The notes below the pieces were generated by a model. That model was not told where the DNA came from. It did not search any database and worked only from the letters and a program-made list of their open reading frames with translations. A DNA stretch of 63,995 nucleotides, filler included, from Licmophora abbreviata (lineage: Eukaryota): NCBI GenBank assembly GCA_900291995.1. It is 13 parts of 13 records of this genome, joined end to end, with 100 filler letters (N's around TTAATTAATTAA, not from the genome) between each part and the next. Parts side by side here need not be neighbours in the genome. Positions count along the whole stretch, not along the records: positions 21,536 to 26,129 come from OLMU01006132.1; positions 26,230 to 27,449 come from OLMU01006133.1; 11 more parts are not named here. The stretch is one strand, 5' to 3'. The translations under genes were made by a program, and so were the position numbers. This document shows positions 18,332-28,699 of the stretch, one piece after another (within the stretch, counting starts at the first letter, position 1; each line of letters opens with the position of its first letter).

Positions 18332-18431
18332 NNNNNNNNNNNNNNNNNNNNNNNNNNNNNNNNNNNNNNNNNNNNTTAATTAATTAANNNNNNNNNNNNN
18401 NNNNNNNNNNNNNNNNNNNNNNNNNNNNNNN
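18332..18431. other. Artificial contig linker, first of 12
   Basis: 100-nt N-TTAATTAATTAA-N spacer. Others start at 19637, 21436, 26130, 27450, 38710, 41829, 47835, 54782, 56509, 59287 and 62557. Confidence 0.98.
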
Positions 18432-20173: not shown

Positions 20174-23100
20174 CTATGCCTTTCGTTGATCGCCTATCGA
20201 AGGAAAAGACTGCTTTACTTGCCCCTGATAATGTGCCTCATACTCCTTCTTGACCCATTTGATGTTCCCGTTTTCTTGCACAGGAACGACTTGACAGCGC
20301 CACGCCAGGCTTGTCATCGCCTTCTCCGCCACCAGCTCAAAAGCCTGGCCGTCGAGATATTGAGCATCCTCTCGTGAAATCTGATTCAGTCGAGCACGCT
20401 GAATAATGGCCTTGTCCGAGATGGGCAATTCCTTCATGAGTTCGTCGTCCATTGCCTGAATGTCATCCGGCCCGAAAGGAACGCCCAAGCCATACACTGA
20501 CCCCGCTGCCTTCACCAGAATCAAGCTCAGAGCGAGTGCCGGCGCAATCGTGGAAACCCAGTCCTTGCTGACGCGAATCTTGATGGGAGGATTCACGACT
20601 TGGTTGCTGTGTGCGCACACAAAGTACAAATGGAGTTTCTGGCGAATAGTAGAGCGGAGCCAGTGGCGAGGGTGGCGGAACCCGTTCATCCGGTCGGCTT
20701 CCACCAAGAGGAAGAGCCTTGGACACTTTGAGGAAAGACCTGCACTCAGAGTCGTGAGCATCTGCAGTGTATGGTCCAACCACTGGTGTGTCTTTGAGTG
20801 CAATTTAATATTTTCGGTGCGCATTGCCTGTAACATATTCATAATACATCGATTTGAAACAAAGTGTTCCCATGTACTGCTGCGGACAAAGCCCCGGAGC
20901 ACGTGGTCTGCGAATGGGATACTTCCACATCCAGCAAAAGCACAGGTAACTTCCGCCATGCCCAGCCGGCTTAGCACGTGGGCCGATGTGCACTCCTGAC
21001 AATGCCAGTGTCGACTGACACCCTTGCAGCCAAGGCATGGCACATTTTTTGCGGTGCAGGAGCGACAGGAGGTTATTGCTGTCGCAGACGAAAGATTCAC
21101 GTCCTGTTCTGCCATGGCTTGTGGTGCTGTATTGTCGGGGCTCCGTTGCTCTATCTTGTACCGTTCCCGGATGTCTTTTAGAGTTGAGAGGATTTTTTCA
21201 TCGGTTGGACGATCATCGATATCCTCAGACATGCATTCGACCGCCAGATCCGCGAAGTCTTGAAATGCTTGGGAAGTCTTGCACTCTTCTTCCAATGCAT
21301 CATCAATGTCACTAAGAACTGACATTTTCTGTCGAACAAACTTACGGTAGAAGTTTACGGCCCTGCCATTCTTGATGTGGTTCTGGATCCGTCCTGTGAT
21401 GAACTCCATGAGCGTCACTCCATAGGAGAATGTGTNNNNNNNNNNNNNNNNNNNNNNNNNNNNNNNNNNNNNNNNNNNNTTAATTAATTAANNNNNNNNN
21501 NNNNNNNNNNNNNNNNNNNNNNNNNNNNNNNNNNNATCCGTCCTGTGATGAACTCCATGAGCGTCACTCCATAGGAGAATGTGTCGCATGCTGTTTCGAA
21601 TGTAGGAACCGAACCATCCTGGTACATTGGGCAAATGTATCCAATTGTTCCAGCCTTTTTGCTACCAGAGGAGTTCTGGACCGTCGCTGCTTCTTCTTTG
21701 GGCACTAGTTTGGCGAGTCCGCAGTCAATCAGCTGGACCGAAAGATCATTCTTCAGGCAGATATTGGCAGACTTGATGTCACAGTGAAAGCATGTTTTCA
21801 CAGTCTCGCCGCCACGATGAAGGTAGCTCAAGGCCCTCATGACCTGCTCCGCAATACCTAGACGAATCTTGAAGGAGCCTAGACGCTCTCGTCCTACATC
21901 ACTCGCCCAAAACTTATCGAGGGAGCCCTTGTGTGCGAGCTCAAACACAAGATACTGATGACCACGAAGATCTTTCGAAAGGTGATAACCGTAGAGACAT
22001 GCAATGTTCGGGTGGTTGAACTGGAGAAGCGTCTGTTAAGATAGAAGATACGTTCGTTTTTGGAAAAAAGAGTGTGTTTTCCCTATTGTGGTCACAAAAG
22101 AGAAGAGTTTACGCACCTGCAGCTCCGTACGAAAGGTTTCCCGGGCTCTTTGAACATCCGCAGAAATTCCATGCCGGACGAGGTCTTCGTGAATCTGCTT
22201 AATAGCAAACTCATGTTTCAGCTCCAGATCATAGCCGCGATAGACAGTGCCAAAGAAGCCCTTGCCAAGTTCCGGTTCAGAAATCTTGATGGATTCAACG
22301 TAGGCAACAGGAAGCTCCAAGGGCTCATCGCGGACCCTGTTCTCAATGAGAGCCTTGAGATTCTCCTGCAACCTTGTAATCTGTAATTGCTGTTGACGTT
22401 CTTGATTCTGTCGTGCTTGCTCCATCGCCAATCGCTGTTGTTCGGCTTCCTGGGCAGCACGTTGGCGCTCTTGTTCGGCCGCCAATCGCTGCCTCTCGGC
22501 TTCCTGGGCGGCAATCTGTCGCCTCCGTTCTGCTTCCTCCCGAGCCGCCGCAAGCTGCCGCTCTTGTTCCGCCTCCTCCAAGGCAACAGTTTGTCGCCGC
22601 TTCGCTTCTTCTTCGTCCATCTGCTGTTTCTGTCGGAGCGCTTCTTCTTCTCGACGGCACCGGTCCGCTTCCTCCTGCTCCTCCAAATCCTGTCGCCGCT
22701 TCTTGTTGGCCCTTACCATTTCCTCAATCTGACTTGTCAAAGATGTGGACATAAAATTGTCGAAGAGAAAAAGCTCTGTCAATGTTGTATTCTTCTCGAG
22801 CGCACCCGCAATGGCCCTGGCACCGTCATCGCTAATCGAATTGTCGCCGAGATCAAGCTCTGTCAATGTTGTATTCTTCTCGAGCGCACCTGCAATGGCC
22901 CTGGCACCGGGATCTTCAATGCCATTGGAGTTGAGATCAAGCTCTGTCAATGTTGTATTCTTCTCGAGCGCACTCGCAATGGCCCTGGCACCGGGATCTT
23001 CAATGGAATTGCCGTTGAGATCAAGCGTCGTCAATGTTGTGTTCTTCTCGAGTGCACCCGCAATGGCCCTGGCACCTTCTTCTTCAATGGAACTGCAGTG

Positions 23101-23487
23101 GAGATCAAGCTTCGTCAATGTTGTGTTCATCTCGAGCGCACCCGCAATGGCCCTGGCACCGTCATCGCTAATCGAATTGTCGCCGAGATCAAGCTCTGTC
23201 AATGTTGTATTCTTCTTGAGCGCACCCGCAATGGCCCTGGCACCGTTAGACCCAATGGAATTGTGGCTGAGATCAAGCTCTGTCAATGTTGTATTCTTCT
23301 CGAGCGCACCCGCAATGGCCCTGGCACCGCCATCTCCAATGGAATCGTTCCAGAGATTAAGCTCTGTCAAAGACGGATCGTTGTTCTTGAGGCGTCGAAC
23401 AGCCTCCTGCAAATCCGAATCAAGCTCCGTCAAAGACGGATCGTTGTTCTTGAGGCGTCGAACAGCCTCTTTCAAAGCCGAAAGCAT
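20174..23487 (-). CDS. LRR (28-aa, RI/NLRC3-like) - coiled coil - non-RD protein kinase - RING-like finger - C-terminal domain protein
   Basis: LRR array, E/Q/R-rich coil, LGKGFFGTVY, FAIK, intron 22033-22116, HPNI, HCDIKSANI, DCGLAK, GTIGY, DTFSYGV. Contigs overlap across the gap (21387-21435 = 21536-21584), so the three ORFs form one gene. Confidence 0.85.
22771..23358 (-). repeat. Seven tandem 84-bp coding repeats (LRR units)
   Basis: aagctctgtcaatgttgtattcttctcgagcgcacccgcaatggccctggcacc recurs every 84 bp, followed by a variable ~24-nt segment. A separate 63-bp duplication (EAVRRLKNNDPSLTEL x2) lies at ~23359-23470. Confidence 0.95.
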
Positions 23488-23555
23488 GTTGAGAGAGAGA
23501 GAGAGAGATTCAGCAAAGCTCCAACTTTTGCAGTAGTCTACAGAAACGATTCCTA

Positions 23556-23702
23556 CTACGAATTCGCTAACAATTGATAATTTTTAAAAACGAAGTTCTC
23601 TGAAGTTATTTGAAGTTATCTGAAGGAAATATTACGGAACTCGCTTTTTTTGTACCAGCGGCTACACAAAACGCCGTAGAAACGAGAAGTCGTCATTGGC
23701 GC
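23556..23702 (+). repeat. Left terminal inverted repeat (147 bp)
   Basis: Near-perfect reverse complement of 26686-26841; contains TGAAGTTAT-like subrepeats. Confidence 0.95.
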
Positions 23703-23735
23703 ATTGACATCACACATTCAACATCATGAAAGACC

Positions 23736-24869
23736 ATGAACGACGACCCTGCAGACACCCGTGCCAAAGCGAGAAGAGACCTTGGACTCTCTCGAGAGCT
23801 TCAGCAGACGCGCGCTGAACTGGATGATCCGAGCGTGGGTGGAGCTCGCGGATATCCTCTCTGGTTTCGTCGGGAAGAGCTGCAGCGGGCAGACAACAAC
23901 GAGCCGACCAAGGCGTCGGTCACTTCTCTCTACCGATGGCGTCAACGGATTGAGCCGCACCGAATGACAGGAAACAAGGTGCTGGATCAGATCGTGGGAT
24001 ATGACCAGTTTCTTATGAGCTTCTATCTGCAAGTGTATCCAGACGCTGAGTCGGACGAAATTGCCGCCTTCATTTACAACGCCGACGGCGGGCTGTACAG
24101 TCGACGCGCCATCTGCAATCGAATGAAAGACCTGGATATTTCAAGAAAAGCTGCATCGACAGAAGCGTACCAAGCATTTTTACCGCACAATGTTCTACGG
24201 AAGCAGCTGTTCTGGACCCAGCCACCACCGCTTGGAGTTCATGACATCCAACGCCGTCGACTCCTGGACATCGATGAGTTTGGTGTTGCTGTCGAGCGAA
24301 CCAATCGAACACATGGGTACTCCCCCACATGTTTACGGATCCGCAAGCCTGGACACTATTGTAGAAACACGAAGCTCACAGTGATCTTTGGCATCGAACC
24401 CGGCGTTCCTGGATTGCCGCCGAACGTGGACGGCAGCACCGTGAAGCCACGTCGATGGATCAGGGTTTATCGAGCCGCAGGCATTTCCAGCTTTGATTTT
24501 GCTGACTTCTGTGAACACGTCTGTTCTTCAATTGAAAACACAATGATCCCAGGCAACGACGATCATCGATATATCCTGTGGGACAACCTCAACCAACACC
24601 GGTCCCCGGTTGTGTACCAAACAGTTGAAGGCCGAAACGGCCCCTGCCAGTTCAGCATTGTCCCGCGTCCTCCATACCAGCCCAAGTACGGTCCAATTGA
24701 ATACAAGATTTGTGATCTCGTATCTGCACTTCGACAAAATTCTCAGAGTGACTGGAACACCAACCGTTTGGAGCAAGAAATCTACCGTGTTGCTGCAAAC
24801 CTTGGAATGAATGGAGGGTTCGACAACGCGTTCGAACATTGTGGGTACACCGACCAGCATGGACCCTAG
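23736..24869 (+). CDS. IS630-like DDE transposase (DD38E)
   Basis: HTH-like YSRRAICNRMKDLDISRK, LLDIDEFG (D1), YILWDNLNQH (D2), PPYQPKYGPIE (E); 38 residues between D2 and E; intact 377-aa ORF. Confidence 0.88.
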   Translation: MNDDPADTRAKARRDLGLSRELQQTRAELDDPSVGGARGYPLWFRREELQRADNNEPTKASVTSLYRWRQRIEPHRMTGNKVLDQIVGYDQFLMSFYLQVYPDAESDEIAAFIYNADGGLYSRRAICNRMKDLDISRKAASTEAYQAFLPHNVLRKQLFWTQPPPLGVHDIQRRRLLDIDEFGVAVERTNRTHGYSPTCLRIRKPGHYCRNTKLTVIFGIEPGVPGLPPNVDGSTVKPRRWIRVYRAAGISSFDFADFCEHVCSSIENTMIPGNDDHRYILWDNLNQHRSPVVYQTVEGRNGPCQFSIVPRPPYQPKYGPIEYKICDLVSALRQNSQSDWNTNRLEQEIYRVAANLGMNGGFDNAFEHCGYTDQHGP

Positions 24870-25048
24870 CTACTGGTAGTTAGACAATCAATTCTGATAT
24901 AAATATTACTTCTACTGTTGTAGGAGCTATACTTGTTCCATGTTCTGATATAGATGATCTGGCTGCGCGACGTTCCCGTTGCGACGCACAGCAGTCGTCA
25001 GTCTGTTATTCATTGTTCTTTGTCTCCCTTCTTGTTTCTAGAGTAGTA

Positions 25049-26679
25049 CTAATCATCCTCCTCAAGGATAGCCTGAAAGATGTTCTTGGCTTCCGGTGTG
25101 CTCAAGTTTCCAGCTATCGAGTCTTTTGCAATCTTGTCCACGCTCTTTGAAGGGGTATCGTTGAGGAGACGTCTCTGCAAATATTTCATGCGCTTCAACG
25201 CTCCCTTGTCCGGATTTTCCTTGTTCGATTCGGCAAGCATGTCACCCTGAACCAAAAGGCGGACACTTGCGATGCGATTCTGGATTGCTTGATCTTCTCT
25301 TGTTGCTGTTACAGGCGTGGAGAACACAGGTGGAGACACTTCCTGTACCTCCTCTGTTGAACGTGTGAAAGCCAAAGGGGCCGTAGCTAGGGCGTAAGCG
25401 AGTCAGAATACACGCACGACATCAAGCACGCCAACGACCAAGGGACTGTTGTACTTACGGGCGTCGAAGCTCTCATATGAAGGAAGTCTCGCAGCAGCAT
25501 TCAGCGGCAGTAGGATCCGACTACTCTCACTACGAGGATCCATTCGAGTGTGCGATAGTTTGTTGTAGGTGAATCGAGCTTCTTGGCTTGCTTTGGCCGT
25601 GATGGCCGGAGCGTACGCAAGCACAGGGGCAGTAGCTCCCGCTTGTTTACGCTTCTTGTCCTGCTTACTAAGGCGCAACTGAGCAATAGATACTCCATCC
25701 TTTGTCATCGTCACCTTCTCTCCCATCGCCGCCTGCATCTTTGTACGCATGGATGCGTTTGCAAGTAGAGGATCAAGCAAAATGTTGGACGATGCGATGG
25801 ACATGGCATTTTGTGCCCACACCGATGTATCCGAGGTTTCTGCCTGCGCAAGGATCTTTGCATTTTCCAAGTACCCACCGATGATTTGACTTGCACCAGA
25901 AATGTTGTTTTCGACATCTGCTTTCATACCAGTAAGACGGAGCTGGGTGAGCCAACAGGAACAACGACGACAGGAGCGACGACGAGGAACAAGAACTTAC
26001 CCTGCATGGAGTTGGGATTCTTTGCAAGATATGTGTCCATTGCAATCTTTCTACGATCGTGTCGCCGGAAGAGAACATCGCACGGACAAGAGCAGATCTT
26101 GCAGGTGCATATGAGGTCGGATCCTGTGCNNNNNNNNNNNNNNNNNNNNNNNNNNNNNNNNNNNNNNNNNNNNTTAATTAATTAANNNNNNNNNNNNNNN
26201 NNNNNNNNNNNNNNNNNNNNNNNNNNNNNACTGGAACGACGAGTATGCTCCTGCTGCGCCCTCTGTGCCAGACGGTAGAGTCGAGTGGTCATGTCGGCGA
26301 CGTACTTGGCATTCCACTTGTTCTGACCGCTTGTGGTTTGTCCCGATTCGGAAACGCTTCGAAGAGTGTCTTTTACTTCAGGATGGTCCTTCAAGAAAGC
26401 ATTGACGAAGAGATCCTTTGGTGCGACCTTGACAAAGGCAGCCAAGACCTGCTTCTTCTGTGGGAGCTTAGCGTACGACTTCTTCGACAGCGCTTTCCAC
26501 AGGAGATCTTTCTCGATCTCGGCTTGATCGTACCAAGGAGCCTCAAGCTCGTCTATAGGAGCAGTCACGAGGTCAATGGCGACCGGAGAGGTAGCAGAAG
26601 GGGCAGGAATCCCCGCAGCAGGGCTGGATGGTTCCGCCATGGTCGGTCGCAAAGATCGCAGCAATCCAATGACAGTCAT
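25049..26679 (-). CDS. Transposon-encoded second gene, Cys-rich, at least two introns, function unknown
   Basis: GT-AG introns 25918-26000 and 25387-25458 join three segments in frame (...NSMQ-D-VENN... and ...FDA-P-TAPLAFTRS...). Exon 26001-26129 encodes TGSDLICTCKICSCPCDVLFRR. The 5' part (ATG 26679 or 26640) is separated by an assembly gap. Confidence 0.72.
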
Positions 26680-26685
26680 GATGGC

Positions 26686-26841
26686 GCGCCAATGACGACT
26701 TCTCGTTTCTACGGCGTTTTGTGTAGACGGCGGTACAAAAAAGCGAGTTCCGTAATGTTTCCTTCAGATATCTTCAGATAACTTCAAATAACTTCAGAGA
26801 ACTTCGTTTTTAAAAATTATCAATTGTTAGCGAATTCGTAG
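26686..26841 (-). repeat. Right terminal inverted repeat (156 bp)
   Basis: Reverse complement of the left TIR with one extra TGAAGATAT-type subrepeat and a few substitutions. Confidence 0.95.
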
Positions 26842-27549
26842 TAAGAACCGAGGTTACTATTTTCATCGCGCCACTGGACTGTCAGACGTTGGTAGTCTGG
26901 CCGTTTGCCCTCAAATTTGCAAAAGTGTTTTGCGGTCAGGTGCGCCAAAAGGCAGCCGACACTGTCTCGGTGAGGACGTCGACCGTCATTGCACGCTCTA
27001 CATTAGTCCTCATGTAACGATACTTCGCAGGCTTGTCAACCACACTACAAAGTGTCTATTTCGTCCTCGTCGCATTGAAAATGACTTCTGAGTCGTCGAG
27101 AAAGCACTCTCGAAGTGAGGGACACGAATTCCAGTCTGTTGCCCGGCGCTCCACAGGAAATGACGAAGTAGACAGTCTTCCGGCTATGTGGACGTGCCCT
27201 TCTTGCAATGATCACTTTGTACGTGCATCGGCGACGTATTTTGCCCTTGGTTGTCGGCTAGGCTGTAAAATATGTGCCAACTGGGGTCGTTACACGGGGT
27301 CACTTTTGTCTGAAGTATCTGTCTGTTCTGAATATTTTGGCGGACAGCCTGACGCTGAGGGTGCTGCGAAGGCACGGCCGGGACAACGCTTGGCTGCAGG
27401 CTAGCTACTAACTAGTAGTCACCATCTGAGTACTGGTTGAGAGCAATTGNNNNNNNNNNNNNNNNNNNNNNNNNNNNNNNNNNNNNNNNNNNNTTAATTA
27501 ATTAANNNNNNNNNNNNNNNNNNNNNNNNNNNNNNNNNNNNNNNNNNNN

Positions 27550-28325
27550 ATTGTGTTGGCAATCACAGACGGGTCCGAACCAGTTTCAAAGAGCTTCAAG
27601 AAGCTGGCAAGCATCTTCTTCGCTCTGGTTTCATAGGGTTCGCCCTTACTGCGCTTGAGCAGAGGTGGTCCCATCACATCGGGAAAGTCAGTCTTGATGA
27701 TTCCAGGTTCGACAATGACAACTTTGATGCCAACATCATCGAGCTCGAGTCGAAGACAGTCGCTGTAACACTCCAGTGCATGTTTGGTAGCATAATACCA
27801 GCCACCAAACAGGCCGTGCACTTTGCCGCCTATACTGCTGACATTGACAATGGTCCCAGATCGAGCCTTTCGCATGTGAGGGATGACTTCTTGCGTGATT
27901 CTCGCCAGACCAAAGAGATTGACGTCAAACTGACGACGTGCCTCCTCCATTGGTACCTCTTCTAACGCCCCGTAGACTCCATAGCCCGCATTGTTGATCA
28001 AGGCATCAATTCGACCGTGTGTTTGGATAATTTGTGCAACGGCCTCGACAATTTGAGTTTCGCTCACTACATCGAGAGCAATCGCGTGCCCACCGGCCTT
28101 GACGATTTCCTTCATGCGATCGACTCTCCTCGCTGCTCCATATACAATGTGTCCTTCTTGAAGAAGTTTAAGGGCCGTCGACAGTCCAATTCCAGAACTG
28201 GCGCCTGTAATCAAGACGACCTGAGGACCTTGCTTGCGTTTCGGAGGCATGGCCTTCTTCAAGAGAAAGTACGCCGACGACAAGGCGACGCCGGCCATTA
28301 TGTAAAGATGCGTGGGGCTGTCCAT
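27550..28325 (-). CDS. Classical short-chain dehydrogenase/reductase, 3' end in gap
   Basis: ITGASSGIG, NNAG, NVSS, YYATK (YxxxK), VEPG. Confidence 0.93.
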
Positions 28326-28699
28326 TGTACTTCTACTTGATAGTGCTCTGTGTGATTATGATATCTTCAGTCGTCTTCGGCCGTCGTTTCTTCGACTGTT
28401 CGTATTTGCTCATCACTGACTCACAACACTCTTGTTGGAACTTTGTTCCCCAGAAGTCGTCGTCATTGGTGGCAGTTTTGGCATGCGCGTTCATCATACG
28501 TCATCATCGCGCGAAATGCGAGCGGCGACAAACGACTTCCTCGACCCAAATTGGAAAAAATGAGAATGAGAATCGAAATCGAATCTTCTGTCGAAAGTTG
28601 TCAAAGATCTTGTTGTGGGAATGGTCGAGATAGTCTATGATGATAGGATTGACACGATCGGTTTCTCATTCACAAAGAAAAGTTCTGCTGTTTTCGGTC

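Follow-up and report, generated by a model that had tools for sequence, protein, structure and literature searches.

A diatom IS630/Tc1/mariner transposon pairs an intact DD38E transposase with a convergent, co-inherited second gene

Among one-gene transposons, the IS630/Tc1/mariner (ITm) elements serve as the model, and the Sleeping Beauty-type tools derive from them. In other superfamilies a second protein stands beside the DDE enzyme, and these serve here as analogies. The CACTA TnpA and MULE VANC proteins bind short tandem motifs within the element that encodes them and help pair its ends or keep them open and unsilenced, and the Harbinger Myb/SANT protein is the model of a tethering cofactor. 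Within ITm, later papers reportedly find a second open reading frame (ORF2) in most full-length bivalve L31 elements; L31 is DD37E. Here, we describe a DD38E two-gene element in a 63,995-nt stretch of Licmophora abbreviata DNA, called the window at that full length. It is almost certainly a diatom two-component ITm element, in which an intact transposase and a convergent, spliced ORF2 are co-inherited under purifying selection.

In PMC7325037, the ciliate TBE and Tec elements are multi-gene ITm elements, and TBE carries a zinc-finger ORF and has its ORFs under purifying selection. There they are DD34E with three ORFs, terminal inverted repeats (TIRs) of ~80 bp or ~700 bp and, in Tec, a recombinase, and are found only in ciliates, whereas the diatom element is DD38E with two genes. 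The L31 hosts in the supplement of the same source include a nematode and a bivalve; the L31 spacing of 37 occurs in 1/47 of our transposase rows. The Mariner elements that carry Fanzor1, as described in PMC3627910, are also TA-flanked with an extra Cys-bearing gene, but the Fanzor motif is missing from the diatom ORF2. Intruder, described in PMC7731502 as a sibling of DD34E/Tc1 in animals, has the DD38E spacing in common; the diatom element adds the second gene and the Tc1-type HTH_Tnp_Tc3_2 domain matches just 1/47 transposases (E 0.037). The spacing by itself does not make the diatom element an Intruder.

Multi-gene ITm elements are already known (TBE, Tec and Fanzor1 carriers in these sources and, reportedly, L31), and what is new is a diatom variant, not a new category. 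Compared with a typical ITm element, it has a conserved second gene, DD38E and arrays of 10–12 bp within the TIRs. Word searches of the literature, with subscription journals and Repbase outside their scope, returned no description of it. Likewise, neither of two transposase motifs was present by word search in the PMC7325037 supplements, whose long files may be incomplete.

The transposon occupies 23556-26841 with a TA on each side and measures ~3.7 kb once ~490 bp behind a 100-N gap are counted. The same genome holds a sibling family (L016), whose transposase is 69% identical and which has a convergent frame of 586 codons. The features of the window copy are as follows.

23554-23555, no strand: left TA target-site duplication, read from the sequence
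23556-23702, plus strand: left TIR, a conserved 23-bp end, then three 10-bp tandem units at ~23600-23627
23736-24869, plus strand: transposase, intact, 377 aa, DD38E (D180, D283, E322)
25049-25386, minus strand: ORF2 last exon, C-terminal helical segment and stop; sibling C-terminus match E 2.5e-8
25387-25458, minus strand: predicted ORF2 intron 2, 72 nt, GTAAGT...CTGAC...TAG, phase 1
25459-25917, minus strand: ORF2 exon 2; phmmer E 2.5e-13 against the sibling, hidden Markov model (HMM) from library proteins E 5.4e-14
25918-26000, minus strand: ORF2 intron 1, 83 nt, GTAAGT...CAG, phase 1; introns of the sibling, L031/L032 and L042 at the same site and phase
26001-26129, minus strand: ORF2 exon 1, 3′ part, CxCxxCxCxC and the helix after it; Cys motif against the sibling E 7.8e-6
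26130-26229, no strand: assembly gap, ~490 bp or ~160 ORF2 codons, sized against sibling L016 and P0188
26230-26640, minus strand: ORF2 exon 1, 5′ part, helical domain; sibling match E 1e-17, 42% identity over 95 codons
26686-26841, minus strand: right TIR, four 10-bp tandem units
26842-26843, no strand: right TA target-site duplication, read from the sequence

Three features of ITm membership are present, namely a DDE_3-type domain with the DDxE/D triad, the TA duplication and the TIRs. The likeness is to the IS630-like side. Pfam DDE_3 matches the window transposase and 46/47 members, and the NCBIfam IS630 profile NF033545 matches 46/47, all under the NCBIfam cut-off; there are also weak matches to Mos1 and SETMAR structures. 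The same D-D-38-E triad appears in 37/47 aligned relatives, and the spacing from the second D to the E is 38 in 40/47 rows. The named relatives are from Mayamaea, and no transposase relative was found in viral contigs or prokaryote genomes by scans sensitive to close relatives only.

The element ends read CTACG...CGTAG directly inside the flanking TAs, and the left 23-bp end is CTACG-N8-AACAATTG. In pairwise alignment the two TIRs are 90.6% identical over 159 columns, with a 10-nt insertion in the right copy. The window tandem unit is ~TGAAGTTATC, with three copies in the left TIR and four in the right. Five further termini from a DNA search are also preceded by TA, each at a different flank. 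A 14-letter terminus pattern occurs nine times in the 29-Mb genome with flanks all different, so the family moved repeatedly; some of the nine are contig edges or deleted copies.

An earlier note on this DNA had claimed a TA duplication, TIRs of ~150 bp, an intact DD38E transposase and, on the opposite strand, a second gene with a CxCxxCxCxC motif and the two stops ~180 bp apart. All of these stand: the TAs and TIRs lie at the coordinates given above, the transposase frame is open and has D180, D283 and E322, the motif is present, and the stop codons of the convergent genes are 179 bp apart. The two frame-restoring introns of that note fared unequally. Intron 1 does restore the frame and has homologue support, whereas intron 2 has a length of 3n and removes a stop, as read from the sequence only.

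For intron 1, the frame is restored only by 26000-25918, and a closer CAG at 25943 (58 nt) fails. The spliced junction aligns without gaps to the sibling once the sibling's 87-nt intron is removed. Phase-1 donors are found at this site in five of the 16 sequences examined (window, L016, L031, L032 and L042), in which the protein also becomes non-homologous there; most other sequences are intronless at the site. The complete Skeletonema marinoi transcriptome proteins P0333 and P0335 match L031 at 94%, and what they lack is precisely its 78-nt phase-1 GTAAGT...CAG intron. Therefore, an ORF2 homologue is transcribed and spliced.

Intron 2 excises an in-frame TGA located inside its CTGAC branch motif. 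The homologues give it no support, and the fit of a contig of uncertain kind ends exactly at its acceptor, which is a hint only. No RNA record was found for the window's own ORF2 copy, and the aligned contigs neither displayed a splice joint nor recovered the gap letters.

ORF2 starts with an ATG at 26640, with a further in-frame ATG at 26679, and would reach ~600 aa once the gap is counted. The gap region harbours 8/13 of the conserved Cys/His. Four window pieces (N-part, Cys motif, exon 2 and last exon) match the colinear sibling L016 in order, so both halves flanking the gap are one gene. The missing codons are not assembled elsewhere in the genome. All 12 gaps of the window (e.g. 18332-18431) are 100 letters with the same central TTAATTAATTAA spacer, and their sizes are therefore nominal.

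The association of ORF2 with the transposase was examined in 80 metagenome loci gathered with a transposase profile. Two ORF2 HMMs made from database proteins scanned 3639 ORFs on both strands of these loci, the sibling and the whole window; the proteins were collected with a profile that includes these loci, so the scan is not fully independent. All 55 metagenome matches are minus-strand ORFs downstream of the transposase and convergent to it. ORF2 is present in 35/48 loci with at least 600 bp downstream, in 27/35 with at least 1 kb and, after collapsing the loci at 90% identity, in 22/29 lineages. The two-ended elements with a full ORF2 (L031, L032, L036, L038/L039, L055 and L089) measure 3.3–4.2 kb. 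The reverse test, from ORF2 to transposase, covers this genome only, where the sibling Cys domain finds three places, all of them element-linked.

The loci without ORF2 are of several kinds. L065, L075/L082, L105 and L106 have a visible right end and broken transposases. In L054, L081 and L093 the convergent ORF is unclassified and no right end is visible, and downstream of L080 the sequence runs into a host-like gene. Transposases are broken in many ORF2-positive loci too. A quick tree was drawn from 50 rows, unrooted and without named ITm references, and excluded loci with <150 aligned residues or short downstream DNA. The positives spread across the whole tree and the negatives are scattered, a pattern that would suit repeated loss or missed divergence.

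Some derivatives were seen beside these. The convergent minus-strand ORFs downstream of the transposase in L081, L084, L093 and L054, one of them common to L081 and L084, do not match the ORF2 profiles; they could be ORF2 ends that have diverged strongly, or else another partner gene. A mini-ORF2 of ~145 aa (L062:882-1313, L063:1340-2026 and L066:789-1139; three copies 95–98% identical) joins the N-terminal start in frame to the C-terminal end with the Cys domain lost. L020:5184-5497 and L116 are internally deleted derivatives of the sibling family, and the L020 end bears its own 10-bp tandem unit.

The ratio of nonsynonymous to synonymous substitution rates (dN/dS) indicates purifying selection on ORF2 between lineages. 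Pairs with at least 50% identity mostly give 0.13–0.37, and two short pairs 0.51 and 0.66. The L087-L037 pair gives 0.20 over 430 codons (Fisher p 3e-37), L087-L035 0.27 at an unsaturated dS of 0.24 (p 5e-5) and the window against the sibling, in the N-part, 0.27 (p 3e-5). The transposases of the window and the sibling give 0.09, so ORF2 is under less constraint than the transposase. The neutral decay that the earlier note had allowed for is not what is found, and with its presence beside the transposase in most lineages ORF2 holds up as a component of the element.

Pairwise identities of ORF2 (10–61%) and of the transposase (30–86%) in 16 families are correlated, with a Spearman coefficient of 0.79 over 120 pairs and 0/2000 permutations as high. 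Shared ancestry would explain the correlation, which shows co-inheritance and not physical contact. A predicted transposase-ORF2 complex, with alignments not used, scored 0.21 against a mark of 0.34.

ORF2 belongs to a large family. In a profile search 655 clusters passed E ≤ 0.001, of which 304 also passed 1e-10; profiles were required, as a single-sequence search with the sibling ORF2 found no homologues. The best 150 of the 655 were inspected and 30 representatives were looked up for organism, among which the organism-named relatives are all diatoms, including a Bacillariaceae metagenome-assembled genome and Skeletonema marinoi. One relative bears the JGI code Psemu1, which we take to be Pseudo-nitzschia multiseries. 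Phage records contained no ORF2 relative in a scan sensitive to close relatives only.

The protein has a helical N-domain, a central domain of 12 Cys and one His, and a helical C-half. The conserved positions run CPxCxH, CxCx4C, GxGCxxC and CxCxxCxCxC, then F and a helix, and each of the 13 Cys/His is kept in 84–98% of the covering rows. From this pattern ORF2 is predicted to bind zinc. AlphaFold models 300 residues as the helical N-domain with a compact Cys domain (mean predicted local distance difference test, pLDDT, 91.5), and the Cys domain alone at pLDDT 93.8 and a predicted template modelling score of 0.85.

The fold check proposed in the earlier note gave a confident model and no clear fold match. 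Foldseek returned no row at E ≤ 0.001 for the ORF2 models in the PDB and viral sets, the ESM Atlas no usable match, and a PDB sequence search with the Cys profile a best E of 1.1. With VIA-align, Z reached at most 5.2 when the 300-residue model was used and 3.9 with the Cys domain. The absence of a match does not establish a new fold.

No Pfam family is common to the ORF2 members. Zn_ribbon_NrdR matches 5/143 of them weakly (best E 0.012), and transcription-factor and Cas12 zinc ribbons are the weak structural neighbours of the Cys domain (Z ≤ 3.9, root-mean-square deviation 2.7, 46 aligned). Kinship with the Tesmin/TSO1 CXC domain (TCR, PF03638) was rejected, since hhalign gave a probability of 0.5% against nine TCR domains of the genome and 1.1% for a reversed control. 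Of the 47 Pfam families for ORF2 members 25 were listed, and TCR was not one of them.

As to function, we put a probability of about one half on ORF2 being a predicted zinc-binding helper that binds lineage-specific TIR arrays, by analogy with CACTA TnpA and VANC. The element ends stay near TA followed by CTACG-N8-A[AT]CAATTG even across lineages whose transposases are only 30–40% identical. Just inside this end sit tandem units that differ by lineage. The 37 termini examined count near-duplicates and, for some elements, both ends; in 29 of them the tandem-unit signal lies above the 95th percentile of the shuffled sequences, always at a period of 10–12 bp. The idea rests on a pattern also known from CACTA TnpA and VANC, in which the enzyme and the element end are both conserved and the arrays and the second protein both vary.

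In the proposed mechanism, the near-identical TIRs would act as twin promoters, since each stops 33–46 bp short of a start codon. The transposase would cleave at the 23-bp end that is conserved. ORF2, which evolves faster, would bind, via its zinc-held domain, the 10–12-bp arrays of one helical turn inside each end, and so may help pair the ends, or hold them open and unsilenced. Acting in trans, it could let copies lacking ORF2 still be mobilised.

Several observations weigh against the array-binding helper. ORF2 is not detectable in 7/29 lineages, so constant co-occurrence with the transposase, which the earlier note had proposed to test, is too strong a claim. L065 (1058-2638) is a complete 1.58-kb one-gene element that retains tandem units, although its transposase has two stops. 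The sibling ORF2 is only mildly basic, with a net charge per 40 residues of -4 to +6. The near-identical L031-L032 copies give ORF2 dN/dS of 1.65 and 1.10 (p 0.27, few changes), and a value of ~1 is expected for copies after insertion. The inner Cys sub-cluster is absent in 4/72 scored homologues, including the expressed Skeletonema form; the Cys domain is therefore modular. Finally, HTH_33 is matched weakly in 12/47 transposases, though not in the window's own, and with this helix-turn-helix (HTH) signal the transposase may itself read the arrays.

The natural short forms (L031:2430-2726; P0165, P0174, P0175 and P0196) have lost the inner sub-cluster. They retain just CPxCxH, CxC and CxC, and an idea of a 4+9 ligand split is thus unsupported. 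The end of L065 is nearly identical to that of the window element.

A stronger form of the array-binding reading, which we hold only tentatively, is that the elements are an undescribed diatom ITm branch with a new zinc-cluster-fold family that reads the lineage-specific, helically phased TIR arrays and is thereby required for transposition, or licenses it.

Alternatively, ORF2 might be an anti-silencing factor acting on host chromatin or small-RNA proteins, not on the element ends, and the transposase alone would read the arrays with its own HTH. Rapid divergence around a fixed Cys scaffold suits such a host conflict, and ORF2-less elements exist. A general suppressor is a shared good, however, and the co-divergence and the 22/29 retention better suit an element-specific job; moreover, two divergent families in one genome each retain their own ORF2. 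We regard this alternative as rather unlikely.

Less likely still is a cofactor for targeting or assembly which, like the Harbinger Myb/SANT protein, would anchor the transposase on promoters or chromatin of the host, with the arrays not read. The co-divergence with the transposase, the window copy at 67 bp upstream of a host ATG and the zinc ribbons among the weak structural neighbours would fit it. Nonetheless, a single near-promoter insertion makes no pattern, the nine terminus flanks compared have nothing obvious in common beyond the TA, and the ribbon likeness is that of background.

It is quite improbable that ORF2 is a long-standing passenger of indirect benefit to the element or host, such as a derived TnpB/Fanzor or an enzyme. 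Fanzor1 genes do travel on Mariner elements (PMC3627910), and Cas12/Fanzor zinc ribbons are among the top weak structural rows. Against this, the TnpB/Fanzor motif D-X(125,275)-[TS][TS]XX-C4 zinc finger-X(5,50)-RD is found in 0/34 long ORF2 sequences, the Cys domain is central rather than C-terminal, the model of the first 300 residues consists of helices with short strands, and no acidic residue among them is conserved above 65%.

That ORF2 is a single host gene, captured and in neutral decay, or that the halves are mis-scaffolded, as the earlier note had considered, could appeal to the gap in the window copy and to the empty site not found, but is already largely refuted by the sibling colinear over the gap, the purifying selection, the three element-linked places and the 655 clusters of a family co-diverging with the transposase.

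A widespread clade that keeps a selected second gene raises the question of what the transposase cannot do alone in these hosts. The many diverged ORF2 proteins are paired with many diverged TIR repeat units, so swaps would put the binding idea to a direct test. An identity is also given to hundreds of orphan diatom proteins labelled 'hypothetical', and the native element, being intact, could become a tool for diatom genetics. If ORF2 reads the arrays, a CACTA/VANC-like logic would have arisen independently in a superfamily whose elements normally have one gene, and each of hundreds of natural, sequence-specific DNA-binding proteins would come with a readable target repeat of its own.

Around the insertion, an empty site was searched for and not found, and the right flank recurs elsewhere behind different upstream DNA. 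Its sequence at 26859-27283 has a 97% copy on another contig (L112) and partial copies on two more, and is therefore itself a repeat. Farther right, an ORF at 27550-28355 on the minus strand, interrupted by the next gap, presumably resembles a short-chain dehydrogenase. To the left, 67 bp separate the element from the downstream ATG of a minus-strand gene at 22036-23487, which we take to encode a kinase-like start, a coiled coil and leucine-rich repeats of 28 residues each, and the element may affect the promoter of this gene.

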